Virus record (IMG/VR): IMGVR_UViG_3300035686_000079
Length of the DNA stretch: 64,000 nucleotides
Direction: 5' to 3' (one strand)
Origin: an uncultured virus (IMG/VR IMGVR_UViG_3300035686_000079)
Lineage: Duplodnaviria; Heunggongvirae; Uroviricota; Caudoviricetes
Within the stretch, counting starts at the first letter, position 1. The number at the start of each line of letters is the position of its first letter. A model generated the notes under the pieces. The model ran no database searches. It saw only the letters and a program-made list of their open reading frames with translations, and was not told where the DNA came from. Positions 10,939-53,371 of this stretch are shown in pieces. A program made the position numbers and the translations under genes.

Positions 10939-11008
10939 CTATTTTAGCGTTTGCTATAGAGTTTTGTAGTTTGATAGAATGGTAAAGTAGCAATGTAATC
11001 ACACAACA

Positions 11009-12334
11009 ATGAAACCATCTGATATTACAGCCGTTGACTTTTTCTGCGGCTGCGGCGGCTCCACAACGGGAGCTGTAGAGGCAGGCGTTCGTGTAACCCA
11101 CGCGGTTAACCACGAGCAGATTGCGATCGCCTCGCACAACACAAACTACCCGGACACAGACCACGATTGTGTGGATGTGACCCAAATCCCAGCTAATCGA
11201 TATCCAGAAGCAACTCTAGGGTTGTTCTCTCCGGAATGTGGAGGACATGGAACGGCAGCGGGGAAGAAGCGAGTAGTTGGGCAGTTAAGTTTGTTCGAGC
11301 AAGAACAAGCCGACATTGGACGGGAGCGATCGCGAATGACGATGATGGAGGTTTGCCGCTTTACAGAAGCGCTGAACTTCCAATACGTTATCGTCGAGAA
11401 TGTGCCGGAAGTCACTCGCTGGTATCTGTTCGATCAGTGGCTGTACGAGCTAACTAAACTGGGGTACAAACACAAGATTGTGAGTTTCAACTCGCAATTC
11501 GCTTATCCGATCCCTCAAAGTCGAGATCGGGTGTATATCCACTTTTGGCGCAAGGGCAACCGTGCCCCAAATTTGGAGTACAAGCCCACGGGGTTTTGTG
11601 CAACTTGCAATAAATCCGTCTCGACCTACCAGCACTGGAAAAACCAGAGAATTACTGTTGGGCGTTATCGCCAGCAGTACGTCTATCGGTGTGATCGCTG
11701 CTTTAATGTTGTTGAGCCAGATGTAGCTTCGGCTGCATCTATCGTTAACTGGGACTTAGTTTGTCCCAAGATAGGTGATCGTATCCAGCCGCTAAGGACG
11801 GCAACATTAAAACGTATAGAAATAGGGCTGCAAAAATACGGCATCCCTTTTCTAGCTGAGTTGTATGGCACTGGTACAGCCAGATCGTTAGAAAAGCCAA
11901 TTGGAACTATTACGACCAGTGGCGCTCATCACGCCTTGGTTGCTCACCCCTCCTTCTTGGTGCAGTATAACGGTAAAAGCCATGCTTCCAGCCTTAGCGA
12001 GCCACTGCCAACGATCACGACAGTTGATCGCTGTGGTCTAGTCGATGCTCATTTCCTGCTTCAGTACTACGGCAGAGAGTCGGCGGCTAGCTCTACTACT
12101 AAACCCTTGCCCACTATCACAACGGAAAACCGTCACGCCCTAATTCAGTGCGCCCATGAGGTGCTTGAATGCGGTTTTCGGATGCTCCAACCAGCAGAAC
12201 TCAAGTTGGGCATGGGCTTCCAAGAAAGCTACGTAGTACTGGGAAATAAAAAGCAGCAAGTCAAGCAAGTTGGTAATGCCGTTACCCCTGGTGCGTTGAA
12301 GTGGCAAATTGAACGTGCCATAGAAAGTCTCTAA
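11009..12334 (+). CDS. Phage-type DNA (cytosine-5) methyltransferase
   Basis: Motifs DFFCGCGG (I), SPEC (IV), ENV (VI), QSRDR (VIII), RML...EL...GF and QVGNAV; repeated PLPTITT units. Confidence 0.93.
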   Translation: MKPSDITAVDFFCGCGGSTTGAVEAGVRVTHAVNHEQIAIASHNTNYPDTDHDCVDVTQIPANRYPEATLGLFSPECGGHGTAAGKKRVVGQLSLFEQEQADIGRERSRMTMMEVCRFTEALNFQYVIVENVPEVTRWYLFDQWLYELTKLGYKHKIVSFNSQFAYPIPQSRDRVYIHFWRKGNRAPNLEYKPTGFCATCNKSVSTYQHWKNQRITVGRYRQQYVYRCDRCFNVVEPDVASAASIVNWDLVCPKIGDRIQPLRTATLKRIEIGLQKYGIPFLAELYGTGTARSLEKPIGTITTSGAHHALVAHPSFLVQYNGKSHASSLSEPLPTITTVDRCGLVDAHFLLQYYGRESAASSTTKPLPTITTENRHALIQCAHEVLECGFRMLQPAELKLGMGFQESYVVLGNKKQQVKQVGNAVTPGALKWQIERAIESL

Positions 12335-12337
12335 TCA

Positions 12338-12361
12338 AACACCGTTCGACCGAACGGTGTT
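12338..12361. repeat. 24-bp palindrome, copy 2
   Basis: AACACCGTTCGACCGAACGGTGTT. Confidence 0.95.
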
Positions 12362-12441
12362 CTTAAGCTCACTCATACTTGAGTGGGCTTTTCTGTTGTA
12401 ACATTGCTACAATAGAATTGTGTACCACAAGCAGTGCAACT

Positions 12442-12744
12442 ATGAGCAAGACAAAAAAGGCTCTTGAGCCGAAGTTAATCAATCGACACTCTTTTCCCAT
12501 CAACGAGAAAGACCCCAGCGATCCATTTTCTGGGATCACATCGGAATGGTATGTAGGGTACGACATTGCATACGATCGCCTCCACAGTTTTCCTGTGGAA
12601 CAGCGAGGTGTTTTGACGGTGCATCAACCACTGATTATCAGCACGCCAGTTGGTATACTTTCCAACTGCAATAACGATTACTACATCAAGTACCATCGCC
12701 AAGATGGGCTATGGAGAGTCGATCTCAGACTTCCAGTTGCTTAA
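12442..12744 (+). CDS. Hypothetical protein (start reassigned to ATG 12442)
   Basis: ATG directly follows the AAGCAGTGCAAC leader motif; terminator hairpin after the stop. Confidence 0.6.
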   Translation: MSKTKKALEPKLINRHSFPINEKDPSDPFSGITSEWYVGYDIAYDRLHSFPVEQRGVLTVHQPLIISTPVGILSNCNNDYYIKYHRQDGLWRVDLRLPVA

Positions 12745-12813
12745 GGCAACAAAAAATGCCTCAGCGTGTATCTGAGGCAGCACGAACGAAACTTGTAACA
12801 TTATCTATCAACA

Positions 12814-13185
12814 ATGAACAACAAACCAAAAGCCTTGTTTCTAGGCTCTGATGGCAACATCTATCCAGACCATCAGATATGTTCGGGCATGATTCCTGCC
12901 GAGCTTAATGGCAAACCTTGCATTTATGCCCAAGAGGGTTGTATCCCAGAACCTCAGCCACTCAATGCTGAGGACGAATACTATAGTGTTGACAAAGGGA
13001 AGCCAGGAGATCTGTGCCCTCCCTGCGCCAAGCACAACCTATCGAATTTAGGGCACTGGCAAGGACATGGGAAGCAAACCTTCCCAGAAGAATTGCTACC
13101 ACTACGGCTGTTTAAATGCCGAATGTGGTTCTGGCTGGTGATACCCGGCTTATACGAAGACGATCCTACTCAGATCAAAGAGTAA
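12814..13185 (+). CDS. Hypothetical Cys-containing protein
   Basis: 123-aa ORF with a CPPC motif. Confidence 0.7.
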   Translation: MNNKPKALFLGSDGNIYPDHQICSGMIPAELNGKPCIYAQEGCIPEPQPLNAEDEYYSVDKGKPGDLCPPCAKHNLSNLGHWQGHGKQTFPEELLPLRLFKCRMWFWLVIPGLYEDDPTQIKE

Positions 13186-13201
13186 CGATCGTTGAATAGA
13201 T

Positions 13202-13765
13202 TTGCCTCGGATTATTCCGGGGCAACTTAGTTTAACCCTACTGGAATTTAAAAAGATGGAAACACTTTTAGCGTACAAATTGCAGTTAGAGAAGCTTGCA
13301 GAGGGCGAGCCAGTGGAAACTGGTTTTTACTTTGACGAGCCTTACGAGCCAAATGTAGATGGCGACTACTGCGAGCTATGTGCAAACTGGATTGTAGAGC
13401 TAATGCGATGCAAGCTAATCATGGACTGCCTCGCTTTCTTGCCCTATCCAGTGCTAGCCCAGCGTTACTATCAATTTTATTGGCAATGGTGGGAGTTCTC
13501 CTGGTGGGGAGAAAGCGAAATTCACCCTCACGTAAGTTGGACAGAAAGAGACAATATGATTTGCTGCGATCGATGCAGTGTAATGTTGTCTTACTCCCTC
13601 ACTGAGTATGGGATTGCTTCGGAGATTGAACATTTCGAGTCTCTAGAAAACATCTCGATCGATTCACGAGAAGCGTATCAACTATGGCAAATCTTTGATT
13701 CAGCACTTGACCTTGAAGTTTTTGTCGATGAGTTGATATTCCTAGGTAAAAAATATCTAGGTTAA
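13202..13765 (+). CDS. Hypothetical protein with two CxxC motifs (possible start 13256)
   Basis: CELC and CDRC. Confidence 0.65.
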   Translation: MPRIIPGQLSLTLLEFKKMETLLAYKLQLEKLAEGEPVETGFYFDEPYEPNVDGDYCELCANWIVELMRCKLIMDCLAFLPYPVLAQRYYQFYWQWWEFSWWGESEIHPHVSWTERDNMICCDRCSVMLSYSLTEYGIASEIEHFESLENISIDSREAYQLWQIFDSALDLEVFVDELIFLGKKYLG

Positions 13766-13878
13766 TTACCTGTTGCTGAACCACAGCAACAGCAAGTCAA
13801 GCCCATTCAGATATGAATGGGCTTTTCTGTTGCAACAATGCTAGAATGATAGAGTAACACTACAAGCAATGCAACCAG

Positions 13879-14577
13879 ATGAATATTTTCAAAGTCGATT
13901 ATAACTTCGGCGGACTGCCATCTACTGAAGTCATCATCAACAACGAAGTTGAGGTGTCTTCTTACGTTTCTGAGTTCCGTCTCATCGGAATTGAATGGCA
14001 TGGAGAAGGAGCGGTGCCTCACTGGCACCTGACACTAATCGTGCGATCGACTGGTCGCACAGACAAGGTTGAATGGTCGTTCCTGAAAAGGCGCGACCTC
14101 AATGGTTCAGGAACTCGCCGCAACAAGCGGCTAGCTAATGGAGATCGTTATAGCTATAAACAGCGGTTTCTTTCCATTTCATTCTGGAAGTGGTTCATCA
14201 GCTGGCATCCTTCCTCTCTTACGGGAAAATCGCCTATTGAAGCGATCGCTCCTTTTAGTGCAGTGTTCAAACCCATATACATTCCCTTTGTGGCTCCCAA
14301 GCCACATAAGGAGCGGAAGCGGTTGCAGAAATTTGCAAATAAGGAAGCCTTGGTTTCCGCGAAAGTGGAAGCCCTAGTCCACCAGTCTCTAGAAGAAGGG
14401 ACTGACAAGCCAATACTAGACCTCTACTCGTTCCACAAGGAGCAGGTGAAGCCAGTCTATTGCCCGAAGGTTTATGACGGGGGATTCTTTATCCCCGGTT
14501 TTGGATATTCGTGCGAACGAGTGGGAGTGGAGGTGACGCCGACGAGCGTTACATTTCACCCTGAGTTAATGGGGTAA
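13879..14577 (+). CDS. Hypothetical protein
   Basis: 232-aa ORF preceded by the AGCAATGCAAC motif and followed by a terminator. Confidence 0.7.
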   Translation: MNIFKVDYNFGGLPSTEVIINNEVEVSSYVSEFRLIGIEWHGEGAVPHWHLTLIVRSTGRTDKVEWSFLKRRDLNGSGTRRNKRLANGDRYSYKQRFLSISFWKWFISWHPSSLTGKSPIEAIAPFSAVFKPIYIPFVAPKPHKERKRLQKFANKEALVSAKVEALVHQSLEEGTDKPILDLYSFHKEQVKPVYCPKVYDGGFFIPGFGYSCERVGVEVTPTSVTFHPELMG

Positions 14578-14657
14578 TCTAAACGATCGCCCTAAAAAGG
14601 GAAAACCCTGCTTTTGAGCGGGGTTTTCTTTATGCAGACACTCTAACTAACCACATT

Positions 14658-15419
14658 ATGGCACTAACAGTTCTCACATATAAACAGTCCGGTATGAAAG
14701 CCGTCTACCATGAGGACAATCAAATTACCAAAACAATCAACGTGTTATCGCTGACTGTTTTGCAAGACAATGCAGAAGTCTATCAAGGTAAAGCTGATTT
14801 TTATGTCAGCACCTTGGTAGAGAACGGATGGGAAATTTGGGATATCAATTTATCGATATTCTCCGAAAAAGAAATCCGAGCTATGCGGACAACTGCATGG
14901 CATTTGCACAAACGCACAGAGGCGGATCGTCGCCTTGCATCATTGCAGGCTCCCATCATGGCTAAAGCCTTGGGACGATCGCTCAAAGACAACCATTATG
15001 CGCATTTCTATTGCGCTGAATGGGGTACGGACGCAATCACATGTGGTTGCGATTTAGTTTGGAAAACTGGGGGACAAAAAATCATCCAGTTTTGCCTAGC
15101 TATTACCAGCTTTGAAGACTTAGAACTTCGGGACTATACCGAGGAGCTGATGTGGCGACAATATATTAAAGGTCGTCGCGATAAAGGTCTTCCTTTTTCT
15201 ACTGAAGGGCGATGGAACCCCTATCGGAACGGGGAGCAACTAAGTGATTTAGAACGCCAAGCTATTCTTGACGCTCAAGAAGCCAAGCGAGGTAGGTTTG
15301 CCGCCTGTGGCGTGTCAGACCTCAATGCACTTTTTGATTCACTTTCTAACACATCTGTGAAGGACACAAAACCATTCACAGTAGATGACTTACCGAAGTT
15401 CTCAGATTTCGTTGAGTAA
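14658..15419 (+). CDS. Hypothetical protein ending LPKFSDFVE
   Basis: 253-aa ORF. Confidence 0.75.
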   Translation: MALTVLTYKQSGMKAVYHEDNQITKTINVLSLTVLQDNAEVYQGKADFYVSTLVENGWEIWDINLSIFSEKEIRAMRTTAWHLHKRTEADRRLASLQAPIMAKALGRSLKDNHYAHFYCAEWGTDAITCGCDLVWKTGGQKIIQFCLAITSFEDLELRDYTEELMWRQYIKGRRDKGLPFSTEGRWNPYRNGEQLSDLERQAILDAQEAKRGRFAACGVSDLNALFDSLSNTSVKDTKPFTVDDLPKFSDFVE

Positions 15420-15504
15420 GCAAAACCCCGATCGCACCTAACCACAAAGCCTCAGTCCCTGCAAGGGATTGGGGCTTTTCTTTGCGTTAGAATAGAGTAA
15501 GGCA

Positions 15505-16410
15505 ATGCAACCAACAACAAATATGGAACATACTGAAAACGCCGAGCCATCGGTGATGTTTGACGTAGCTAATTTCACGGACGATCGCATTATCTACGAA
15601 ATTCTCGAAGCCGTAGGCTTGGTGACTGAATTTGGCAAGGAAAAAGCAATTGCAGATTACGGGTCGCAAGTTGACCTTGTAGTAGCCAGAGAGTGGATGA
15701 TCAAATCCAATGAAGCAGAGGAAAAACTAGCTCAATACAAAGTAGTGAGAAATCAACTCTATTACTTGAGGAAACGACTAAACCCAATGGAAGATCGGTA
15801 CCTAGATAGTTTGTCTACACCAAGGCATCTATTGAAATATAAGGAACGCCTACACTTACTGGACAACCATCCAGAAATATCAGTCTTGCGTCGGGAGAAA
15901 GCCGAATTGCAAGCTGAATGCGATCACAGATCTAAAGCCTACGATCGGGCTTCTAATGAAGCATTCGCGATCAGCAAAAAGCTATTCAAGCCCCAACCCA
16001 AAAAGCCAAGGCAACCTAAACCTGAAAAGGATTACGCTGCTTTGGTTGAATACTGGGAAAGGAAACTAAGCGGTGCTACCTACCGCTTGAACAGAGCGAT
16101 AGGTGCATTAGAGACTGCTCAGAAGAACTACGATCGTATCTGTGGCAACGGTAGTGAAATTCTTCAACATTTCCACATGGGAATGGTTGGAGGCAGTGGC
16201 AAGAATGTCAAAGCGCTCAACAGAAAAAAGGAGCGCCAACTCGATAGCACCATTGAAGCTGCCAGAAAACTGAGAGCGGCTCAAGAACGAGTAAACAGCT
16301 TGCAATCAACTGTTGACCTATACCAGAAAAACTTGGATAAAGCTGCATCCAAGGTAAAGGTTACTAGTACACAAGTAACACTACCCAGTTTTGCAGACTG
16401 GGTAGAGTAG
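15505..16410 (+). CDS. Coiled-coil protein ending LPSFADWVE
   Basis: 301-aa helical ORF; terminator follows. Confidence 0.75.
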   Translation: MQPTTNMEHTENAEPSVMFDVANFTDDRIIYEILEAVGLVTEFGKEKAIADYGSQVDLVVAREWMIKSNEAEEKLAQYKVVRNQLYYLRKRLNPMEDRYLDSLSTPRHLLKYKERLHLLDNHPEISVLRREKAELQAECDHRSKAYDRASNEAFAISKKLFKPQPKKPRQPKPEKDYAALVEYWERKLSGATYRLNRAIGALETAQKNYDRICGNGSEILQHFHMGMVGGSGKNVKALNRKKERQLDSTIEAARKLRAAQERVNSLQSTVDLYQKNLDKAASKVKVTSTQVTLPSFADWVE

Positions 16411-16537
16411 AAACCCCGAAGACCCCCTGCTCCTCGAAAAGGCTTAGGGGGTCTTTGTTTTGGGTGTTTTAGCTTAATGTCTTAGTACAACATTTTGAAT
16501 TATGTTATCATAGATATGTAGCAATGTAATCACAACA

Positions 16538-16897
16538 ATGTTGAATAATTACGATAAATACGGGCATCTCCGCATTGGGGATGTCTGTCGGTTCGAGCAA
16601 AGCCTTGCGCCCAGGTCATCTTCCCTGATGATTCCGGAACTCTATGAGCCTCGGAATTGGATGGTGATAGCCTTTGGCATTGGCAAGGATGTCGATGAGG
16701 TGTACGTCCGCCGTTTCCACGACGGACTGGTCGTTAAGATACCGACCTACATAGCGATCGCCAACCGCCTTAAGCACCCCAAACAGGGACAAGGTGGTTT
16801 TTGGGCAAAAATCAAAGCGGTGCAACGGATTAACCAAACCCTATATCTGGATATAGCGGCAACACTTGCCGACGCCAAAAGAAAGCGACTGATTTAA
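16538..16897 (+). CDS. Hypothetical protein
   Basis: Leader TAGCAATGTAATCACAACAATG nearly identical to that of the C5 methylase. Confidence 0.7.
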   Translation: MLNNYDKYGHLRIGDVCRFEQSLAPRSSSLMIPELYEPRNWMVIAFGIGKDVDEVYVRRFHDGLVVKIPTYIAIANRLKHPKQGQGGFWAKIKAVQRINQTLYLDIAATLADAKRKRLI

Positions 16898-16940
16898 CAG
16901 CGCTCCTTGCAGGGGGCGATCGTTCAAGAACAGCCAAGCA

Positions 16941-17312
16941 ATGCAACCCAGAATAACTATGTCTCAAGGAAGAATAATTACGTTGCCGAGGGATGCGTTT
17001 CATTACGCATTACTACTCAAAAACATTGCACAACTTAGTTTGTGTATTTTAGACAATCAAGTGAACGGGTTGAAGTTAGAAGAGGAGCTAGAAGGAGATC
17101 AGTTCATCATAGAGCAAAATGAGTCAAGCGGCGCATTTTACGTTGCTAACTACTTCTTGACATTGAATGATGAACCAATTGAGGTTTATATTCCTCTACA
17201 CAGCCGTCATGGCTGGGTACTAAAAGCAACCTACAAAGGCGAAGACTATGAAGTCTTTGATGAAAAGGGCAACTTTATTGCAAACTTTGAAGCTTCGATT
17301 CCAGTCGGTTAA
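16941..17312 (+). CDS. Hypothetical acidic protein
   Basis: 123-aa ORF followed by a terminator. Confidence 0.65.
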   Translation: MQPRITMSQGRIITLPRDAFHYALLLKNIAQLSLCILDNQVNGLKLEEELEGDQFIIEQNESSGAFYVANYFLTLNDEPIEVYIPLHSRHGWVLKATYKGEDYEVFDEKGNFIANFEASIPVG

Positions 17313-17334
17313 GCGAAGCTAGAAATGGACACTC

Positions 17335-17362
17335 AACACCCACCCCTAAAGGTGGGTGTTTT
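17335..17362 (+). terminator. Intrinsic terminator
   Basis: AACACCCACC-cctaaa-GGTGGGTGTT followed by TT. Confidence 0.75.
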
Positions 17363-17417
17363 GTTATCACAAGTGTTAATATAGATATATAGCAATGCAA
17401 CAATAAGGAGCATATCA

Positions 17418-18356
17418 ATGCCTTTCAAATACGGAGAACCCGTGTGGGTCGAGTTCCTGCGTCCACTCAACCTTGTCAAAAAAGGAGAGACGTTTGGAGT
17501 GGATCGTAAAGACGAGTTTCAAGGTTACATGCTTTGCAACTATGACGTATGCAATCCCGAACCCAAAAACATAAAGCTGGCAATCACGATCGAATCACAG
17601 ATCTTTACTGGGGAATTCCCCCGAAATTCTGTGGATATCACAGCTCGCCCAGCCGAAGACAAACTCCCAGAGTTCACAATTTCTCATTTTGGACTCTACA
17701 AATTATGTGTTGAGGAGTGTTGGGTCGAATGTCAGCGGATCAAGCACAAGTGGCACGACCTGCCACTTACCCTTCCGCTCAAATCGAAACAGTCTTCAGC
17801 TGGGTTTTGGGAAATGTGCGAACGATCGATTAAGTATGGTCAGCTATACAAGCCTGACCAACTCAACCTTCGCAAGCTCATTTCAAATTGCAAACGACTT
17901 TGGTTGTTTGGAATCAAGAGCGATCGTATCCCCGACTTGTATGACATTGCAGGAAAACTCCTGTGTCAAGACCCGTGGGTTAAACCATGGGGTTCGCAGG
18001 GAGTCGGCAACGTACCGTTCAATCCAGACCAATTGTTCACCTATGAACATCACTGGTACGAAATGCTTGCCGCCCTACACTGGCTTCCACCAGTCACACC
18101 TATCGAGGTGGACGTGGAAGCTTGGGATTATTTCTTGGAGGTTCTTCCTCCACTGATGATGTCCTGTCACTTCGAGTGGCAAGGGCAAACTCAATACCTC
18201 TCCTATGTCATGGGAGAGGGAACCCCTCTCACCGGAGGGTTCTACAAAAATGACAAACACTACCTGGTTAGCGTTCCTGCAAATGCCAAGATTTGGCACA
18301 GGACTAGTAGCAAGGATAAGGCTGTTACAGCTTCGTACTTGTTCTACAACCGCTAA
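17418..18356 (+). CDS. Hypothetical protein
   Basis: 312-aa ORF with AAGGAG SD; C-terminal EAWDYFLEVLPP motif. Confidence 0.75.
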   Translation: MPFKYGEPVWVEFLRPLNLVKKGETFGVDRKDEFQGYMLCNYDVCNPEPKNIKLAITIESQIFTGEFPRNSVDITARPAEDKLPEFTISHFGLYKLCVEECWVECQRIKHKWHDLPLTLPLKSKQSSAGFWEMCERSIKYGQLYKPDQLNLRKLISNCKRLWLFGIKSDRIPDLYDIAGKLLCQDPWVKPWGSQGVGNVPFNPDQLFTYEHHWYEMLAALHWLPPVTPIEVDVEAWDYFLEVLPPLMMSCHFEWQGQTQYLSYVMGEGTPLTGGFYKNDKHYLVSVPANAKIWHRTSSKDKAVTASYLFYNR

Positions 18357-18423
18357 CACTCTCGATAAATAACTCACTCCCCCAGCCGTAAAAAGCTGGG
18401 GTTATTTTCGTGGAGAATCGCAC

Positions 18424-19014
18424 ATGACTGAGCTGAAACATCTGTTATCTCAAATCATTGGGAAAACAACGGCAAACAAGCTAATTAAGACTCTCCAAGA
18501 AATTGGAGACCCAGCTTACTTATTGCAAATCTCCTCCTATGAGGAGCTTTGTCATTACGTAGGTGAAAAGGCGGCGGCTAAAGTTATTGCTGCCCTAGCA
18601 TTGGGGCAGGTCGTCCGCATCCCAACTCATAAATGGACGGTCTCTTCCCCAAGAGCTGTATACCACGCCTTAAACTGCAATGCCCGTCCCAGACAGGAAT
18701 GCCTACAGGCGATATATGTAAATGCCCACCTAGAAGTGCTGGGCATAAAGACAATTAACATTGGCACGGCAGTAGAGTCTCTCGTAGACTCAAATGAATT
18801 TTTTCGTTGGGCGATCGTATTCAATGCGGCAGCGGCGATCGTTGCTCACAATCACCCAGGCGGGAGCCTTACTCCCAGTCCCGAAGATCTTGCGATCACC
18901 AAGCAACTGATCGCCGCTGGAAAAACAATCAATGTCGAGCTTCTCGATAGCTTGATATTGACGCTCTATACTTACCGATCACTCAAGCAAGACTACCCAC
19001 AACTGTGGGAGTAA
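18424..19014 (+). CDS. radC: RadC-like JAB/MPN domain protein
   Basis: KAAAKVIAALALG, QECL, JAMM motif HNHPGGSLTPSPED, LLDSLI. Confidence 0.9.
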   Translation: MTELKHLLSQIIGKTTANKLIKTLQEIGDPAYLLQISSYEELCHYVGEKAAAKVIAALALGQVVRIPTHKWTVSSPRAVYHALNCNARPRQECLQAIYVNAHLEVLGIKTINIGTAVESLVDSNEFFRWAIVFNAAAAIVAHNHPGGSLTPSPEDLAITKQLIAAGKTINVELLDSLILTLYTYRSLKQDYPQLWE

Positions 19015-19036
19015 CACCGTTCGGTCGAACGGTGTT
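19013..19036. repeat. 24-bp palindrome, copy 3
   Basis: AACACCGTTCGGTCGAACGGTGTT, overlapping the radC TAA. Confidence 0.95.
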
Positions 19037-19324
19037 AGTGAAAAACTAAGACAAAAACGCTAAAACCCTTTACTTATGAGGGTTAAGGATTGTTCAGCCG
19101 AATAGTCCAACGACAAGACGCTGAACCCCCTAACAAGGTTCAGCGCCTGCTCATGAATATTGCTCAGTTAGCAGTAATCGCATTCTCATTCTAACTCAAG
19201 AGCAATCATTCGCAAAAAACAGTCAAACCCCAGTCCCTGTAAAGGTTCTGGGGTTTTTGTTGTGTTAGAATGTAAGTGTGGCAACAATGTCACATTTAGC
19301 AATGCAACAAAAAGGACAAATAAC

Positions 19325-19816
19325 ATGGTCGCCTTCCACTACATCAATTGGTGCGAGGTTGCTCGGTTCATGGGCAAAGACAATTTTTTAATGCGTCTGA
19401 CGCCTGAGGAAGTCAGATTCTATCTGGCTCCTTATGGCGATATCTGCATCGCAAACAACGGACAAGAGGTTAATGTCTTCTGGTCTATCATTCCCAAACT
19501 GGAACTAAACTTCCCGGAGACGCTAACAACGTGGCAATTCAAGCTACATGAAAGCATCCCTCTCAACACGAGAGACAGCAAGCAAATTGCCACAGAAATT
19601 AAAGCGGCACTTGATAATGCGATCGCTCAGTCGATCGCAGAACAACCGATTCTGTATTCCAGAAAACCGGAGACGGGACTTGAAGTTCGCGTCATCAAAG
19701 AAGACGGCGAGTACATCATCCAGACTCGTTTCCCAGGAACGCTTTGGGAAAACCAGCTGGGAATGACCGATCGGAAACAAGTCCTTATAGAGGCAATAAG
19801 CTTCTGTAGTCTTTAA
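19325..19816 (+). CDS. Hypothetical protein (start reassigned from 19262)
   Basis: AAGGA SD and the AGCAATGCAAC motif precede ATG 19325; its TAA abuts hammerhead 1. Confidence 0.65.
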   Translation: MVAFHYINWCEVARFMGKDNFLMRLTPEEVRFYLAPYGDICIANNGQEVNVFWSIIPKLELNFPETLTTWQFKLHESIPLNTRDSKQIATEIKAALDNAIAQSIAEQPILYSRKPETGLEVRVIKEDGEYIIQTRFPGTLWENQLGMTDRKQVLIEAISFCSL

Positions 19817-19876
19817 CCCGCCTGACGAGGCTAGCGGCGGCTAGCCGAAACTCCCCTTAATAAGGGGAGTAGCGGG
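19817..19876 (+). ncRNA. Type I hammerhead ribozyme, copy 1
   Basis: P1 CCCGC/GCGGG; core CTGACGA; P2 GGCTAGC-ggcg-GCTAGCC; GAAA; P3 CTCCCCTT/AAGGGGAG; GUA triplet with predicted cut after 19871. Confidence 0.93.
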
Positions 19877-19905
19877 ACGCAATCTTTCACACCCGCATAC
19901 TAATT

Positions 19906-20304
19906 ATGCAAGCACATAGCATTGAAGAAATGATGTTAGTCCTTTATCAAAAGGGACTGGTTGACAATCTTGAAAGGTCTCGAAAAGAGGCGCGTGCCTA
20001 CTGGGAACGAATGCAGGGAACACCCGATGCGGAGTCCCCTCACACGGCGGCCCCTTGGCACAACTTTGGCTACATCATTCACCACAATGGGCAACATATT
20101 GCCCATGTGGTTAGCAAACAAGATACTCCAGAAAACCGAGCTAACGCTCACTTAATAGCAGCGGCTCCCGATCTACTGCAATCCGCCAAAGCGGCATTGC
20201 AAGCACTCGTAGCAGCAAATGGTGACGAAGTGGCAATTGCTGACCTCAGGGCGGCGATCGTCAAAGCCACACAAGAAAGCTGCTTGCCCTATGAACAGGG
20301 CTAA
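19906..20304 (+). CDS. Conserved phage protein
   Basis: HTAAPW...ANAHLIAAAPDLL motif; lies between hammerheads 1 and 2. Confidence 0.75.
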   Translation: MQAHSIEEMMLVLYQKGLVDNLERSRKEARAYWERMQGTPDAESPHTAAPWHNFGYIIHHNGQHIAHVVSKQDTPENRANAHLIAAAPDLLQSAKAALQALVAANGDEVAIADLRAAIVKATQESCLPYEQG

Positions 20305-20364
20305 CCCGCCTGACGAGGCTAGCGGCGGCTAGCCGAAACCCCCCTTGTTAAGGGGGGTAGCGGG
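20305..20364 (+). ncRNA. Type I hammerhead ribozyme, copy 2
   Basis: Same core; P3 CCCCCCTT/AAGGGGGG is a compensatory change relative to copy 1; predicted cut after 20359. Confidence 0.93.
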
Positions 20365-20397
20365 ACGCAATTTTTTCACCCCCGCAATAATGCAACC

Positions 20398-20739
20398 ATG
20401 ACCATTCAATATCTACACAACAACTGTCGAGCCTGTAAGGTTTTTCATATAGAAATTGCCAGAAGGCTCAAAGCAATTAAATATCCGGGAGTTGCCAGCT
20501 GCACCTCCTATCAGGATATTTGTGAAATGTTTTGGAGGGATACCATAACACAGTTTTCTTTCTTACTTAATACCCCTGAGTACAGGGGCAAGGTAATTAC
20601 ATGGGCATCCTTTGCCCAACTCATTAGTAATTATTCTGCCGACACAGAAAGAATTCCTCTGATCGTAGACCTTCTTTTACTTGCTGATTCACTCACTAAA
20701 TCAGCAGACAACCCGCCTGATGAGGCTAGCGGCGGCTAG
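20398..20739 (+). CDS. Hypothetical protein whose last codons read into hammerhead 3
   Basis: C-terminal NPPDEASGG is encoded by the ribozyme P1/core/P2. Confidence 0.65.
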   Translation: MTIQYLHNNCRACKVFHIEIARRLKAIKYPGVASCTSYQDICEMFWRDTITQFSFLLNTPEYRGKVITWASFAQLISNYSADTERIPLIVDLLLLADSLTKSADNPPDEASGG

Positions 20740-20771
20740 TCGAAACCCCCCTTATTAAGGGGGGTAGCGGG
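20712..20771 (+). ncRNA. Type I hammerhead ribozyme, copy 3
   Basis: CCCGC-CTGATGA-GGCTAGCggcgGCTAGTC-GAAA-CCCCCCTT...AAGGGGGG-TA-GCGGG; predicted cut after 20766. Confidence 0.92.
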
Positions 20772-20804
20772 ACGCAATTTTTCACACCCCGCAGCAATGC
20801 AACA

Positions 20805-21929
20805 ATGAGTCAGTCTATTCCAGGATTACCTAAAAAAGCTGCCCTAGACAAAGCCTACCAAGGCTTAAACAAAGGACAACCTATTACGGTTGAAATTTAT
20901 TCAGCACAATGCAGTTACGGCGCACAATCTAACTATCAACCAGTACTAACTAAGTTCTGGGTTGAGAAACAAGGGCAGGCTGCTCGCGTTCGACGCTTTA
21001 CTGGCAAGAGCTTAGCCAAGTTAGATGAGTTTTGTCAAAAACTCGTCAACGAAAAAGCGTTTGTATTACTAAGCCCACCTGATGAAGCCACTAGTAGTGG
21101 CTACCCCTTGTCCTTTGGCGACATTACTCCAGGAGACAACTTCACTCGCCTCCCAGTACCTGAAGGCGAAGCTATTCATACAGGGGGACTCTACCTCTCT
21201 CCAGACGGGAAAGAGGTCTGGAAACCATTGGACATTAAACCATATCAAAACTGCGATTTTCGGTATCCCTCGCAAGAGGCACAGTTACTGGAATGCATGG
21301 CAGATCAGCCAGGGTTTCCAAAGAACTGGCGAATTGAACAAGCCAATGGACGCCGATTCCTAGTGCGTCCGCGTTGTCGTATCATTGGGCAGGATCTACC
21401 CTATTCATTTCTATCTCTGGAAAATATTCTGGAGATCGAGCAGTGGATACGATCGCTCAACTCCCAATACTGGGAGGTTAACGACTACATCACTGTTGCC
21501 TTTGATAAAAATATTGGGCAACTGTTTCTTCTAGACCTATCTGCTGCCCAGGTAATGGGAAAGCCAGGTAGTTCAACGGCTTGGCAAGCTGATGATACCG
21601 ATCGGTTTTACCAGTTCGCTACCCAATGTGGATATACGGGGCTGGTCAAACTTCGTCAAGATGCCCGTCATCTGACAAGCTCGATCGCTTGGCTCCAATT
21701 ACAGGGGGACGAATACTCCCCTGTCACTGAAGAACATCGGCATATTTATGCCTCTCGCAATCGTCCCTTAGGCGGCTGGGCGAAAATTCCAGATGCTGTC
21801 TTTATGGATGGCAATTTCCAAGACACGAAGGTTTGGTCATGGGCAGTAACACCCACAGAACTTCCTCCAGACCTGCTACAACGGTACGAGTTAACCTGGG
21901 CGTATAGTCCAATCCCGTACCGCAAGTAA
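20805..21929 (+). CDS. Hypothetical protein, possible protein-kinase-like domain
   Basis: TGGLY...VWK...EAQLL...VND...FLLDLSAA spacing resembles a kinase fold. Confidence 0.6.
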   Translation: MSQSIPGLPKKAALDKAYQGLNKGQPITVEIYSAQCSYGAQSNYQPVLTKFWVEKQGQAARVRRFTGKSLAKLDEFCQKLVNEKAFVLLSPPDEATSSGYPLSFGDITPGDNFTRLPVPEGEAIHTGGLYLSPDGKEVWKPLDIKPYQNCDFRYPSQEAQLLECMADQPGFPKNWRIEQANGRRFLVRPRCRIIGQDLPYSFLSLENILEIEQWIRSLNSQYWEVNDYITVAFDKNIGQLFLLDLSAAQVMGKPGSSTAWQADDTDRFYQFATQCGYTGLVKLRQDARHLTSSIAWLQLQGDEYSPVTEEHRHIYASRNRPLGGWAKIPDAVFMDGNFQDTKVWSWAVTPTELPPDLLQRYELTWAYSPIPYRK

Positions 21930-21949: not shown

Positions 21950-21982
21950 AAACCGCTCAACCTCTCTCAGGTTGGGCGGTTT
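21950..21982 (+). terminator. Intrinsic terminator ending the ribozyme-containing operon
   Basis: AAACCGCTCAACCT...AGGTTGGGCGGTTT. Confidence 0.75.
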
Positions 21983-22055
21983 CTGTTTGTACAGATCTCG
22001 TTTACGGATTCCGTACATACTAAAATAGGTGATATGTCAATGAAGGCTGTCACTA

Positions 22056-22515: not shown

Positions 22516-24114
22516 CTAATTTAAGCCCTTCGGTGATTGGCTTAGCTTTAGCTCACCCGTTCCAATGCTTACTTGCAGTGAAGGTTGATGTTCCGTCATG
22601 CCCGAAGACATGGTGAGGATACCCTCAAGGGCTTTTAGCCATTGAAAAAGTTGAGTGCGTGGGATATCATGGCGTTTCAAGTAACGACCAATTCTATCCC
22701 ACCCACTCCATACATGCCTTGCTTCATCCTCTGGTGTCGCAAGGCATTGTGGTATCTTCTCGCTCAATCTCATGGCTCTACGAGCAATAGCCATTGCCGC
22801 AGATGTTCCACTATTGAGTCCATATTTCTGCATGAACTTAATCATGCCGATGACGCTGGTAAAGGCGGGATTAACTTTGATTAATTCCACACCGTATCTT
22901 CTACATCGAGATTCCAGGGAAGTCCTAAACAAACCTGTGCTGAGGTTGGAAAGCATTTCATTGTAGAGCTTGCTTTCCTCACTCATAGAGGCTTTCTTCT
23001 TGCTGAAGTCCAAGGATTCAATGGCAATAGCACAACCCAATGATTCGGCAAGAGTAACAATCTCGGCAGCAATATCCCTCATCCGGGCTTGGCGTTGTCC
23101 AGCTGTCAGTCCCTTCCACTCGAATGGCATTTCTTGGACATAGCCAATATTTCCATCTCGTTTAACATAGGCAAGAGAAATGTGATCGGCGTTAAAGTCA
23201 ATGCCAATACAACCGTTCTTTCGATTGTGAACGAGTGGAATGTGCGGTACGTAGGTTGTCAGGTGAACGTACCACCCACCAGCCTTGTGTTCTCTCCGGA
23301 AGACTTGAGTTGTTATTGGCTTTTGCATTTCCAGTGCATAGTCGAGGTCGCTTCTACGAGTGCGATTATCTCTATCGCTAACACTGAAATCTAGATCTAA
23401 AAATTCCCCTAACTGCGATCTGAGGCAACGAGGAATCCTAATGTTTAAACGGTAACTTCCCTCATCGTCTAACTTAAAAACTTTGAGCATAGTCCCACCG
23501 CCTGTTTGAGACTTGCCCACACAGTAGAACCGTCCTGAGCGTTTTTCCGCCCAGTCGTGTCGCCACTGTTCGTGAGACTCATAACCGTTTGCTTCCAAGT
23601 GGTGCTGGGCATTAAAAAGTTTGCGAGAGCCGAAGCAAATATGCAGACGTTGCACAGACTCTAATTGCTTAAGTTCCCTCTGGAGCGCTGCTATCTTCTT
23701 GGTTTTAGACTTTAATCCTAGTAGCTTAGTGTCAAACTTCTGCTTGTCTTGATGAGTAGGGAAGCCTTTCTTTGTTGCTGAGGTGAGTTGCTTCTCCAGT
23801 GTTTTGAGTGTATCTTTGGCTCGTTTTAGCTTCTTCTTAATCTGTTCTTTTATCCGGTCAATATTAAGTTCTTTCGCTGTTGTTAGTTGATCGAGACATT
23901 GTTTGGCTTCTGTAGCAATAGAGTCTGCCCATGCCCAATCAATATCAAAGTCTTTCTGAAGGCGTTTTTCTACTTCGTCTTCGGACAATCCTGATTGTAG
24001 CCAATTCAGGGCTGTTCTACGCCATGATTCGTACTTGATGCCAAGAATCTCAAGCGCTCTATGATAATCTATTTGGGCTTCAATTCCTACTTGAGTTCCG
24101 TGGCTTTTTGCCAT
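22516..24114 (-). CDS. tnpB: TnpB-related protein (IS607-associated clade lacking the zinc finger); no transposase nearby
   Basis: ICFGSRKLFNAQ, RuvC GIDFN and AIESLDF, VNPAFTSVIG, AAMAIARR. Confidence 0.85.
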   Translation of the reverse strand: MAKSHGTQVGIEAQIDYHRALEILGIKYESWRRTALNWLQSGLSEDEVEKRLQKDFDIDWAWADSIATEAKQCLDQLTTAKELNIDRIKEQIKKKLKRAKDTLKTLEKQLTSATKKGFPTHQDKQKFDTKLLGLKSKTKKIAALQRELKQLESVQRLHICFGSRKLFNAQHHLEANGYESHEQWRHDWAEKRSGRFYCVGKSQTGGGTMLKVFKLDDEGSYRLNIRIPRCLRSQLGEFLDLDFSVSDRDNRTRRSDLDYALEMQKPITTQVFRREHKAGGWYVHLTTYVPHIPLVHNRKNGCIGIDFNADHISLAYVKRDGNIGYVQEMPFEWKGLTAGQRQARMRDIAAEIVTLAESLGCAIAIESLDFSKKKASMSEESKLYNEMLSNLSTGLFRTSLESRCRRYGVELIKVNPAFTSVIGMIKFMQKYGLNSGTSAAMAIARRAMRLSEKIPQCLATPEDEARHVWSGWDRIGRYLKRHDIPRTQLFQWLKALEGILTMSSGMTEHQPSLQVSIGTGELKLSQSPKGLN

Positions 24115-24372: not shown

Positions 24373-25749
24373 TTAAATAAACAGCCGCTGGTGCGGAGGT
24401 GTGAACTGTTTAAAGAACTGGAGTTGATATCCAATCCCATTAAGTCCAGCCAATGGTGTCTGGGCCGTCCACAGACGATCGGGTTGGGTCAGTAGCGTAG
24501 GAACTACAAATTCCCGATACTGACGCCCGGTGAGGAAAACAATCTCAGCTCCTGGAGCTGCGATCGATTCTAGTTGCTGAACGACACGTTCAGACCACTC
24601 ACGCCGATGACGAACACCTTTTCCTCTAAGGGTTTGGTCGTATGGCTCAAGAACGGTATCCGGATGGACGATGCCGTGCTTAGCCGAAATGGCATACCAA
24701 TTGTGGTTATTTACTTCCACATAGCGGCGAGCTGCTCGCCACCACTGCGAATTGTACAGCTGTTTTGCTGGTACTGGGTGGTCTAGCTTTGGATCGACAC
24801 AACTCACAAGCGTGATTCGCTTGCGGCTTATGATATTTCGATGGGCGGCGATTTGCTGACCTAAGTTATGGGCAATACGCCCGTAATTAGCCTGACGGGT
24901 TCCACTGGTTCTCGAATCAAAGCCTTCGAGTTGCAGTCGCTCACATACTGGGCATTCGCAAGTTGGTGCAATGGGCGTTTCTCCAGGATGAACTACATCG
25001 TAATCCTCTAGCTTGTGTCCATTTGCAAGAAGCCATTTATTTTTTCTAATAGCCATTTGCTGATAGGTACAGCCATCGAAAGATTCAATGCCTAGCCTTG
25101 TCCAGGCTTCAGCATACCTAGGAGAATTTAATCCCAGTACGTGAATTGCACAGTCAGCTGGCAATGCCTTCCGAATAGCTGCCACAAGATTTACGCAGTA
25201 TTGCAGATTAGAGGCGCTGGGAACCAATCCCCCCACTGCAATATACCGATAGCCAATTTTGTAGAGCCACTCGGCATAAACGATACGCTCGGGAATTGAT
25301 AAACCATGACAAACAGCCATGGGCACAAATCCAGTGTCGCGACTAATTTCCAAAAATTCTTCCGCACTATCGCGGTTAAATCTTCTACGAAATGCCATTT
25401 GGTAGGGGTAATCTCCGCCAAATGTACCTTGCAACTTTGGCGACAAGATATGATCTGGCGCGATCGCAATATCACCTGGATCGCCTACCGCCTTGATTCG
25501 GTTGAGAATCCATTGGGGCGTTACCAGGCTTTTGGCGATCATTGGAACCTCTAGCTCTAAATAAGTTCTAGCTCCGCAATCCCACTGCTTATGTCCTGAT
25601 GGCACAGTCTTGTGTTTATAGCTCAGCGAGAGCAGCCAGCCTTCCGGCTTTAAATAAAACTCCAAAAATTCGTACAACGGGATATCGCGCCCCGGCAAAC
25701 GAATGCAGTCATCATGCCCTACGTTTGCGTAGAATTTCGATTTAAGCAT
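24373..25749 (-). CDS. tRNA-guanine transglycosylase/DpdA-like protein fused to a C-terminal DUF6884-like domain
   Basis: WDCGA, APDH, AVGGLV, IHVLG, SFDG, zinc motif CECPVC...HNL; C-terminal LVSC...AKQLYNS...ISAKHG...EPYDQTL...PLAGL.GIGYQL. Confidence 0.8.
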   Translation of the reverse strand: MLKSKFYANVGHDDCIRLPGRDIPLYEFLEFYLKPEGWLLSLSYKHKTVPSGHKQWDCGARTYLELEVPMIAKSLVTPQWILNRIKAVGDPGDIAIAPDHILSPKLQGTFGGDYPYQMAFRRRFNRDSAEEFLEISRDTGFVPMAVCHGLSIPERIVYAEWLYKIGYRYIAVGGLVPSASNLQYCVNLVAAIRKALPADCAIHVLGLNSPRYAEAWTRLGIESFDGCTYQQMAIRKNKWLLANGHKLEDYDVVHPGETPIAPTCECPVCERLQLEGFDSRTSGTRQANYGRIAHNLGQQIAAHRNIISRKRITLVSCVDPKLDHPVPAKQLYNSQWWRAARRYVEVNNHNWYAISAKHGIVHPDTVLEPYDQTLRGKGVRHRREWSERVVQQLESIAAPGAEIVFLTGRQYREFVVPTLLTQPDRLWTAQTPLAGLNGIGYQLQFFKQFTPPHQRLFI

Positions 25750-30633: not shown

Positions 30634-30731
30634 CCGATCGCACCCTCTAGAACTCCCCAATCGTTTGATATATTCTTAGGGAGGACGCTACAACGGCGTC
30701 CGTAATTTTTCGCATGTACGGACGCCCGTAA

Positions 30732-52244: not shown

Positions 52245-52636
52245 TGCAAGAAAAATCGCAACAATTGACGATCGAATCTATTAGGAAAAGTCTAACACAA
52301 CAAACTCAATGGTTGACATTGGAAGGGGCGATCGTTTACGTTTGTCACAAGCTTCTTGAAAAACGAACTTACCCAAGTAAGATGATTTCCGAATGTCCTG
52401 CACCGTATGAAATCTCGGACACGATTTGTTATCGCGCTATTAATTGGCTCATCGAGCAGCGAATAATTACCAGCCAAATAGAGAAGTTAGCTGAGTTTAA
52501 GCGGGGGCGTCCGCGACGGATGCTCGATATTACTGAGGGCAACAGGGCGAAGGCTGAGGAACTGGCGAAGCTGTGGATCGATGTTTACGGACGATCGGTT
52601 GTGCAAACGGAAACCCCGCAAAGCCTTGACGAATAA
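52244..52636 (+). CDS. pex: PadR-family regulator, homologue of cyanobacterial circadian period extender Pex
   Basis: L..E.AI.YV, Y.ISDT..Y.A..WL, RGRPRRM, AEELAKLW match Pex signature motifs; TGATG coupling to the upstream gene. Confidence 0.8.
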   Translation: MQEKSQQLTIESIRKSLTQQTQWLTLEGAIVYVCHKLLEKRTYPSKMISECPAPYEISDTICYRAINWLIEQRIITSQIEKLAEFKRGRPRRMLDITEGNRAKAEELAKLWIDVYGRSVVQTETPQSLDE

Positions 52637-52654
52637 GGCTTTGTGGGGAATTAG

Positions 52655-53236
52655 ATGGTGTGTACGGATTCCGTAAAGTATTTTATGATCGCAAAACAAC
52701 GACCGCTAATATTCTATGACTGGGAGTTCCAAGAAGACGGTATAACAATAGATCCGATCAGCCTTGGGATGGTATCAAGTGATGGGCGGGAGCTTTACCT
52801 AATCAACAAAAGTTTTGACTGGAATAAAGCAACAGATTGGTTAAGGCAAAACGTGAAGCCCAATCTATACCTTGTTGAGCCGCAATTCAGCTCAACACTT
52901 GAAGTAACAAAGCAAGAACTACACAACTGTATTCTCAGTTTTTTAACAGCACAATTTGAGGCTACCAGCGAGAAGCCGAAACTTATTGGCTGGTTCTCAG
53001 CTTACGATTTTGTTTGTACGGCTCAAAGATTTGGAGCTTTAGTTGATAAACCCAATTTACTACCTTGGTGGAATTGCGACTTAAAGCAATGGGCAGACGA
53101 CTTAGGTAACCCAAGGCTGCCAGAAAAACCAGCTCAACACAATGCGTTACTTGACGCTCGGTGGGTAAAAGACTCATACAAATGGTTAAGCGAAAACTAC
53201 AATCACCCAGCTTGGACAGTTCAGTCCACTGACTAG
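52655..53236 (+). CDS. DEDDh 3'-5' exoribonuclease (RNase AS/Rv2179c-like); likely start 52687
   Basis: IFYDWEFQEDG, ISLGMV...ELY, WLRQNV, SAYDFV, HNALLDARW. Confidence 0.85.
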   Translation: MVCTDSVKYFMIAKQRPLIFYDWEFQEDGITIDPISLGMVSSDGRELYLINKSFDWNKATDWLRQNVKPNLYLVEPQFSSTLEVTKQELHNCILSFLTAQFEATSEKPKLIGWFSAYDFVCTAQRFGALVDKPNLLPWWNCDLKQWADDLGNPRLPEKPAQHNALLDARWVKDSYKWLSENYNHPAWTVQSTD

Positions 53237-53371
53237 CGCTAAGGCTGAGGAACTGGCAAAGCTGTGGATCGATGTTTACGGGCGATCGGTTACGCAGGCG
53301 GAAACCCCGCAAAGCATTGAGGAGTAAGGCTTGCGGGGTTTAAGAAGGCGTTTACGGATTCCGTAAACGGA

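Follow-up and report, generated by a model that had tools for sequence, protein, structure and literature searches.

Three predicted type I hammerhead ribozymes between the genes of a putative early operon in an uncultured cyanophage-like virus

The window analyzed here, a 64,000-nucleotide (64-kb) stretch of DNA from the uncultured virus IMGVR_UViG_3300035686_000079 (Caudoviricetes), carries three near-identical hammerhead ribozyme motifs on its + strand, which lie between four consecutive genes (A to D) of a putative operon. We consider it probable (roughly 70%) that these are active type I hammerheads belonging to a widespread, pseudoknot-stabilized subclass of phage intergenic ribozymes, and that they would split one early transcript into four mRNAs. 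This proposal builds on observations of the motif itself, its fold, the constraint acting on it, covariation across the ribozyme family, the gene syntax, and the bounds of the operon.

RESULTS

Three complete hammerheads in one repeat family

A repeat search of the window recovered a family (D3) of three 99-nucleotide (nt) copies, of which copies 1 and 3 share 78% and 90% identity with copy 2, respectively. These units of about 99 nt start at positions 19815, 20303, and 20710, that is, at a spacing of 488 and 407 nt, and together they delimit a region from 19815 to 20808. Each unit opens with AA, followed by a complete 60-nt hammerhead (Table 1). Its 5′ part consists of CCCGC (the 5′ strand of stem I), the core segment CUGA(C or U)GA, and stem II, GGCUAGC-GGCG-GCUAG(C or U)C; its 3′ part consists of GAAA, stem III, C(U or C)CCCCUU...AAGGGG(A or G)G, then UA, and finally GCGGG (the 3′ strand of stem I). 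A hammerhead core was defined as C3 U4 G5 A6 N7 G8 A9 together with G12 A13 A14 and a cleavage-site nucleotide H17 other than G, and the three helices were required to meet at this core with closing pairs 1.1-2.1, 10.1-11.1, and A15.1-U16.1. All three copies contain CUGA(C/U)GA, GAAA, and a GUA triplet with A17, and a helix descriptor finds the three helices in each of them, with five pairs in stem I, seven in stem II (closed by the loop GGCG), and nine in stem III. Loops close stems II and III, which leaves stem I as the open helix and makes the ribozymes type I.

How specific these hits are can be judged from the window itself. A loose core pattern matched it four times versus 1.01 times expected, a count that 1 of 100 shuffles reached, and three of these four matches are hammerheads 1 to 3. 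The fourth, on the minus strand at 30689-30747, has no stems and fails the descriptor for all three topologies. A strict descriptor, which demands all three helices and covers the three topologies on both strands, returned only hammerheads 1 to 3. The minimum-energy fold of each isolated 60-mer is the hammerhead, with −34.8, −36.9, and −34.2 kcal/mol for copies 1, 2, and 3 (z-scores of −4.36, −4.13, and −3.41; 0, 0, and 1 of 200 shuffles as stable), and for copies 1 and 2 this fold remains the lowest in energy when about 45 nt of flanking sequence is included on either side.

The differences between the copies follow the fold. Seven substitutions distinguish the three 60-nt ribozymes, none of which falls in the conserved core or breaks a pair. 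They affect position N7 (C or U, with U in hammerhead 3), two or three sites in loop III, pair 15.3-16.3 of stem III (U-A in copy 1, C-G in copies 2 and 3), and position 11.2 of stem II (C or U), which leaves a G·U wobble at 10.2-11.2 in copy 3. The leaders behind the ribozymes diverge far more, as seen from the 78% identity of the whole 99-nt units of copies 1 and 2. The first-pass annotation of this stretch had described three near-identical elements with the full core and all three stems, whose differences in stem III (U-A/C-G) and stem II (G·U) preserve pairing; sequence, descriptor, fold, and the covariance model described below all bear this out. Sequence analysis supports all three as genuine type I hammerheads that are under constraint.

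Covariation and arrays among relatives

Relatives were collected by pattern scans in which only the core and stem I were fixed, while stems II and III were left free. These scans returned 11 loci from IMG/VR, 84 from metagenome contigs, and 7 from genome contigs, the latter including Chamaesiphon and Elainellaceae cyanobacterial metagenome-assembled genomes and one Paenibacillus genome. A pattern containing the exact stem II of the window yielded 0 metagenome loci. The collection amounts to 65 to 66 distinct ribozymes from outside the window, 65 of which have enough flank for alignment. Contiguous pairs counted from the core averaged 5.3 in stem II and 5.8 in stem III of these relatives, compared with 1.7 in shuffles. 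In an alignment of 68 rows, 87.7% of the cells were paired versus 69.1% in shuffles (0 of 500 as high), with a covariation score of 0.397 versus 0.097, and slid controls were 33 to 41% paired. Stem II accounts for this with 89.2% of its cells paired and six of seven pairs changed on both sides, and stem III with 93.4% and five of seven pairs; covariation in stem I carries no weight, since this helix was fixed by the search pattern.

The same alignment points to a candidate tertiary contact between stems I and II, a pseudoknot between loop II and the 4 to 6 nt located just 3′ of stem I, which is paired in 62.9% of the cells and has all five of its pairs changed on both sides. The column pair 30-83, for instance, is C-G in 28 rows, U-A in 13, and G-C in 4. 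In the window copies, the pseudoknot would be limited to three G-C pairs (GCG with CGC).

A covariance model (R1) was built from the 65 non-window rows, with the window copies excluded. On the 64-kb window it produced exactly three matches, the three hammerheads, at 65.1, 64.7, and 62.5 bits (E-values of about 1e-12), and the next match scored 12.9 bits. Among 96 loci of about 1 to 3.4 kb, the model matched at least twice in 18 loci, at least three times in 10, and up to five times (locus L092); arrayed matches lie on one strand, a few hundred nucleotides apart. One of these arrays, in a metagenome locus (L049; 1.9 kb), is a mixed ribozyme array, which holds, between 289 and 1824 and all on one strand, three type I hammerheads of the window subclass, a near-threshold type III hammerhead (42.4 versus 48.5 bits), and a twister-sister ribozyme above threshold (58.8 versus 34 bits).

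Gene syntax and leaders

The ribozymes are tightly fitted to the genes. A TAA stop codon stands directly before copies 1 (19814-19816) and 2 (20302-20304), and a new ATG follows each copy (19906, 20398, and 20805), located 34, 38, and 38 nt past the respective predicted cut. The ribozymes have the sense orientation of the phage operon, and each interval holds one gene. This layout had been proposed in the first-pass annotation, whose predicted cut sites (Table 1) and unit lengths of 488 and 407 nt also proved correct. What had been missed is that copy 3 is preceded by CAA in place of TAA; gene C therefore reads into the ribozyme and overlaps hammerhead 3 by eight codons plus a TAG stop at 20737-20739, which falls in the 3′ strand of stem II.

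A similar syntax is found among the 66 distinct non-window ribozymes. In 51 of them, an open reading frame (ORF) starts no more than 120 nt downstream, with a median distance of 40 nt past the cut and often with GGAGG in front. An upstream ORF ends near 54 of the 66; in 15 of these 54 the stop codon lies 0 to 3 nt before the ribozyme, and in 19 the UGA of the core itself is the stop. The spacing in the window, 0 nt from stop to ribozyme and 34 to 38 nt from cut to start, is thus typical. Since upstream genes often end inside the ribozyme, terminating ribosomes would sit on stem I and the core. With three same-sense ribozymes between four + strand genes in a phage context, the locus is a hammerhead array of the type described by Perreault et al. 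in 2011 (PMC3088659).

The window leaders have no Shine-Dalgarno sequence and end in the 10-mer GCAATGCAAC or a close variant of it, namely, GCAATGCAAC itself in unit 3 (20794-20803), TAATGCAACC in unit 2 (20387-20396), and TTATGCAAGC in unit 1 (19903-19912). The window holds six exact copies of GCAATGCAAC versus 0.21 expected, all on the + strand (at 13866, 15502, 16938, 17392, 19299, and 20794) and each 1 to 25 nt before an ORF start, with four of them directly behind TAGAAT or TAATAT boxes. The ATG within the box is in frame with the ORF at some copies and out of frame at others. One possible role of this box is that of a non-Shine-Dalgarno translation signal; another is that of a site for a regulator of early genes. 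As the units end in boxes of this type, processed mRNAs would thus share the leader box of promoter-driven early genes.

Every window leader also contains CCCGC 15 to 16 nt past the GCGGG that cleavage would release. The two are complementary, as for the copy at 19892-19896, so that re-pairing is possible, and the GCGGG-CCCGC helix is similar to stem I in stability. Of 64 relatives, 18 have a CCCGC in the 40 nt downstream and 2 have one upstream, compared with a mean of 4.5 and a maximum of 10 in 200 shuffles; these counts are not independent because many of the relatives are mutually related. Such pairing could hide the newly formed 5′ end once cleavage has occurred; alternatively, it could be a competitor of ribozyme folding while the RNA is still uncut.

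Rfam coverage and competing folds

Several results weigh against active ribozymes. In an Rfam scan at gathering scores, no family reached its threshold anywhere in the 64-kb window. The Rfam hammerhead models, which the first-pass annotation had suggested as a check, consequently gave no gathering-level match: the best one, RF03152 (RAGATH-1 hammerhead), remained below threshold with 28.8, 27.9, and 25.8 bits versus a gathering score of 56.3, and neither RF00163 (type I) nor RF00008 (type III) matched here at E-values up to 10. In terms of the fold, stem I is short, with five pairs, the pseudoknot of the window copies is the small one described above, and alternative pairings are nearly isoenergetic. 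When copy 1 is folded with its leader, the minimum-energy fold has GCGGG-CCCGC in place of stem I, and in copy 3 with flanks the core CUGAU pairs with an upstream AUCAG; gene C extends over stem I and into stem II of hammerhead 3, and its translation could likewise disturb folding. The tail hairpin on its own is no more stable than shuffles (z-scores of −1.5 to −0.2). Moreover, the relatives were chosen by a window-derived pattern, so that the invariance of their core and stem I is by design and carries no weight.

With respect to Rfam, the relatives are informative. In 12 loci, their hammerheads are below the thresholds as well, with best scores of 42.4 versus 48.5 bits for Hammerhead_3 and 27.9 versus 34 bits for Hammerhead_1. 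Since the relatives too miss the thresholds, the zero Rfam result reflects model coverage, and we read it as a gap in that coverage and not as the lack of a defining ribozyme feature. The window elements share the catalytic core and the three-helix junction with RF03152, RF00163, and RF00008, and they align to RF03152 over its full 77 positions, including the 5-pair stem I and the long stem III. They differ from RF03152 in stem II, which has seven pairs here and is minimal in the model, and they lack a convincing counterpart of the upstream hairpin of RAGATH-1. At the E-value level, the Rfam scan found no other ribozymes in the 64-kb window; the remaining matches were a sub-threshold trpB motif, discussed below, and a spurious Hsp83.

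The failure to reach a gathering score could alternatively mean that the three elements are inactive relics or chance look-alikes, that is, ordinary intergenic hairpins or terminators. However, the full core is present three times, the substitutions are only compensatory or neutral, covariance model scores of 62 to 65 bits contrast with 12.9 bits for the next match, and the family covaries; we therefore regard this explanation as extremely improbable.

The competing pairings raise a different possibility, namely, that cleavage is conditional or tuned, with partial cutting setting the ratio of the four proteins. Stem I would face competition from the tail CCCGC, the core of copy 3 from the upstream AUCAG, and hammerhead 3 from ribosomes that translate gene C into it. 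The near-isoenergetic folds that we computed and the downstream enrichment of CCCGC in relatives are in line with such a scheme, and regulated cutting of phage hammerheads was raised by Perreault et al. (PMC3088659). Yet transcription finishes the ribozyme before it reaches the tail CCCGC, which makes the tail hairpin more likely to form after the cut, the enrichment counts stem from interrelated sequences, and no ligand or protein partner is indicated. We consider tuned cleavage unlikely.

The repeat unit at the DNA level

The DNA of the locus is present in two biocrust metagenome runs only, both of them DNA runs. The second run has no cover over 19336-19669 and 20004-20671, a gap from which we draw nothing. 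In this run, one contig joins the end of the leader (20808) straight to the unit start (19815), and another has a unit behind a different gene end, which is a weak hint that the cargo differs between relatives. Because the units are 78 to 90% identical while the genes between them are mutually unrelated, one could imagine that the 99-nt units serve mainly as homology for cassette recombination and that ribozyme activity is secondary. The joint, however, is seen in one contig with a depth of about 6, a side of 35 nt, and 85% likeness, and such joints often arise from repeats or from other organisms; in addition, no integrase, cassette-type transposase, or reverse transcriptase was found among the 55 ORFs scanned. 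A role at the DNA level also leaves the purifying selection on the ribozyme fold unexplained. We judge it quite improbable as the main function, and it is compatible with active hammerheads that divide one transcript.

The arrangement resembles integron cassettes in that a repeated element stands between single genes without promoters. It differs from them in that the repeat is a sense-strand RNA enzyme and not attC; as regards IntI and attC, neither an integrase family nor an attC-like site appeared among the 55 ORFs scanned with Pfam.

Operon layout and genes

On the + strand, the order of features is terminator, −10 box, gene A, hammerhead 1, gene B, hammerhead 2, gene C, hammerhead 3, gene D, and terminator (Table 1). 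The first hairpin marks the end of the preceding unit and lies immediately ahead of the operon. The −10-like box is absent from the output of a consensus promoter scan. From 11009 to 21929, all ORFs of at least 90 amino acids (aa) that were taken as genes are on the + strand.

Table 1. Features of the hammerhead operon in the 64-kb window
Feature	Position	Strand	Remarks
Terminator-like hairpin with U run	19225..19256	+	−19.3 kcal/mol; z-score −5.22; 0 of 200 shuffles as good
TAGAAT, −10-like box	19266..19271	+	Found by eye; within a promoter-like repeat (D5) present three times in the window
Gene A leader box, GCAATGCAAC	19299..19308	+	Exact copy
Gene A	19325..19816	+	163 aa from ATG 19325; open frame from GTG 19262; no family
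Hammerhead 1 (type I)	19817..19876	+	Predicted cut after A19871; R1 64.7 bits, E-value 6.8e-13
Leader 1	19877..19905	+	ACGC 19877-19880 can pair with loop II (pseudoknot); CCCGC 19892-19896
Gene B	19906..20304	+	132 aa; Phage_P22_Y8K6 domain (PF27050), phrog_1273
Hammerhead 2 (type I)	20305..20364	+	Predicted cut after A20359; R1 65.1 bits, E-value 5.5e-13
Gene C	20398..20739	+	113 aa; no family
Hammerhead 3 (type I)	20712..20771	+	Predicted cut after A20766; R1 62.5 bits, E-value 2.2e-12
Gene D	20805..21929	+	374 aa; no family
Intrinsic terminator-like hairpin, operon end	21950..21982	+	14-pair stem; −25.1 kcal/mol; z-score −6.89

NCBIfam and PADLOC gave nothing usable for genes A to D, a homologue search with gene B returned its self-match alone, and a protein-kinase-like fold lead for gene D is weak and below the bar (template modeling score of 0.43; predicted local distance difference test of 0.49 for the model). 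Neither gene A, gene D, nor the RadC-like gene of the window had relatives in IMG/VR, and no DNA match to a related phage was found among 50,697 phage records. The phage nature of the window is evident from a terminase gpA ATPase, an SU10-like capsid protein, a polymerase III beta clamp, an M15 peptidase, and KilA-N; DNA methyltransferases, RadC, and a TGT-DUF6884 fusion are encoded as well. The window also contains GCGATCGC motifs (HIP1), which we take to point to a cyanobacterial host.

Other features of the window

The −10-like box of the operon belongs to a set of promoter-like repeats (D5; 10962-11003, 16493-16534, and 19253-19294), in which a TAGAAT box is followed by GTAGCAATGTAATCACA. 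A second pair of repeats (D9; 12365-12413 and 13799-13847) consists of a terminator hairpin followed by TTGTAACATTGCTACAAT, which holds the reverse complement of the word GTAGCAAT shared with D5. Judging from D5 and D9 together, the early region appears to have a common set of operators or promoters.

A near-perfect palindrome of about 30 nt, AACACCGTTCGATCGAACGGTGTT (D1), occurs in nine copies at gene ends on both sides of the genome map (9133, 12331, 19006, 25813, 27755, 30603, 41923, 47274, and 54944). The copy at 19004-19040 folds with −17.2 kcal/mol (z-score of −4.4), and its center, CGATCG, is a restriction-type palindrome. These copies may represent a phage-wide terminator, an RNA-stabilizing hairpin, or a protein-binding site. 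Another hairpin, TACGGATTCCGTA, stands right after the terminator of the hammerhead operon (21981-22017). Its two other copies (52641-52677 and 53331-53367) lie behind a 98-nt repeat with 89% identity (52544-52641 and 53235-53332), which is shared by the 3′ ends of the adjacent genes 52232-52636 and 52655-53236. Repeat families D4 and D7 together comprise this stretch and the hairpin.

On the minus strand, the sub-threshold match to the trpB noncoding RNA motif (RF04312; 24265-24371; 48.8 versus 59 bits, E-value of 0.00087) lies directly upstream of a 532-aa ORF (22516-24114, minus strand) with a weak Cas12f1-like TNB/transposase signature, and it possibly represents the guide-type RNA of a TnpB-like element. 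The neighboring ORF 24373-25749 (minus strand) fuses a TGT-like domain (E-value of 5.6e-09) to DUF6884 (E-value of 2.2e-40) and adjoins N6/N4 and C5 DNA methyltransferases, which suggests DNA base modification as an antirestriction function. Finally, an open frame of at least 3004 aa (54986-64000, + strand) runs past the end of the window and has no Pfam match at E-values up to 0.001.

DISCUSSION

According to the reading that we favor, a single early transcript would begin on the + strand near 19.28 kb and end with the terminator at 21.98 kb. Each ribozyme would fold once GCGGG, the 3′ strand of its stem I, emerges, and would cut after GUA at the predicted site, yielding four separate mRNAs. 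The mRNA of gene A would carry a 3′-terminal ribozyme with a 2′,3′-cyclic phosphate; genes B and C would reside on RNAs of 488 and 407 nt, respectively, each with a 5′-OH and a 3′-terminal ribozyme; and the mRNA of gene D would combine a 5′-OH with a terminator hairpin. The downstream mRNAs would all begin with a defined leader of 34 to 38 nt that is independent of the upstream gene, their first five nucleotides could re-pair with the CCCGC located 15 to 16 nt further on, and they would carry a GCAATGCAAC-type box as in the promoter-proximal leaders of other early genes. The likely outcome would be that stability and translation of the four cistrons are uncoupled and that each obtains a standard 5′ end. 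Transcription, cleavage in vivo, and these consequences for stability and translation are what we infer here.

Two well-known systems would work alike. The early transcript of phage T7 is cut between genes by host RNase III at double-stranded hairpins, and the hairpin-bearing ends set mRNA stability and translation. While T7 needs host RNase III, the RNA here would cut itself and leave the predicted 5′-OH and cyclic-phosphate ends. RiboJ is an engineered insulator derived from a satellite RNA, in which a hammerhead plus a short hairpin strips upstream context. Insulators of the RiboJ type likewise provide a standard 5′ leader, and their counterpart in this phage operon would be a type I ribozyme of natural origin. 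It is tempting to speculate, although we hold the full version to be unlikely, that the 99-nt unit is a portable, promoter-free expression module made of the hammerhead, a stem I strand that after cleavage flips to form a hairpin at the 5′ terminus, and the phage's own non-Shine-Dalgarno GCAATGCAAC box, and that it would be copied within the genome to bring accessory genes into the early operon. Its cargo would then vary from one related phage to another, the processed mRNAs would mimic primary early leaders, and some of the RNAs might be circles.

In the first-pass annotation, the locus had been called a ribozyme-delimited gene-cassette system. The ribozymes do delimit single genes, but the layout is not new, as it is already found in the work of Perreault et al. 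from 2011 (PMC3088659). These authors described multiple hammerheads that, in prophages, often bracket one gene or a short block of genes, and they proposed that long phage transcripts are processed to give mRNAs for an operon or for one gene (PMC3088659). Three of their tandem arrangements cleave in vitro, one of them also in Escherichia coli, and cleavage was found in native transcripts of about 2 kb (PMC3088659). A review from 2019 restates the processing idea and notes that further work is needed to define the purpose of phage hammerheads (PMC6765202). Cleavage in vivo has been reported for three type II hammerheads near phage-like genes in cells of Desulfovibrio vulgaris (PMC8782182). As in the arrays of Perreault et al., several hammerheads of the same polarity occupy the spacers of varied phage genes in the window; what differs is that the present array is of type I, lies on a cyanophage-like biocrust contig, has leaders without a Shine-Dalgarno sequence and with a phage-specific GCAATGCAAC box, and is predicted from sequence. 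The accessible portions of the literature on hammerhead ribozymes and cyanophages yielded no work on natural ribozymes in cyanophages.

A further parallel concerns retrozymes and viroid-like RNAs, where tandem same-sense hammerheads also bound unit-length RNAs with 5′-OH and 2′,3′-cyclic phosphate ends, and where the ends of the unit are able to rebuild the ribozyme (PMC5680766). Their units are noncoding and eukaryotic or viroid, and their circles have been demonstrated (PMC5680766), whereas the window units are predicted from sequence as cistrons of a double-stranded DNA phage, each with a complete ORF. Given that stem I and the pseudoknot partners (loop II and the tail) are identical in all units, the ends of an excised unit could rebuild a native hammerhead, which would set the 5′-OH beside the cyclic phosphate, and some excised single-gene RNAs might rejoin into circles. 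The 488- and 407-nt RNAs would then be circular mRNAs, joined end to end by hammerhead ligation or by a host RtcB-type ligase. Several points speak against this. Perreault et al. sought circular or spliced products from such arrays and report none (PMC3088659). No RtcB family match was found among the 55 ORFs scanned, the tail CCCGC is a competing partner for the 5′ end, and neither 488 nor 407 is a multiple of three, for which reason rolling translation of circles was rejected. We therefore consider circular mRNAs very unlikely as the purpose of the array, in contrast to the separate linear mRNAs proposed above.

Such layouts are common in phage DNA, and the array itself is not new as a discovery. 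With regard to the role of phage hammerheads, the locus provides a compact test case, with one promoter-like site, three ribozymes, four genes, and one terminator. The shared leader box and the conserved complement of stem I suggest that each cistron would receive a standard, context-free 5′ end.

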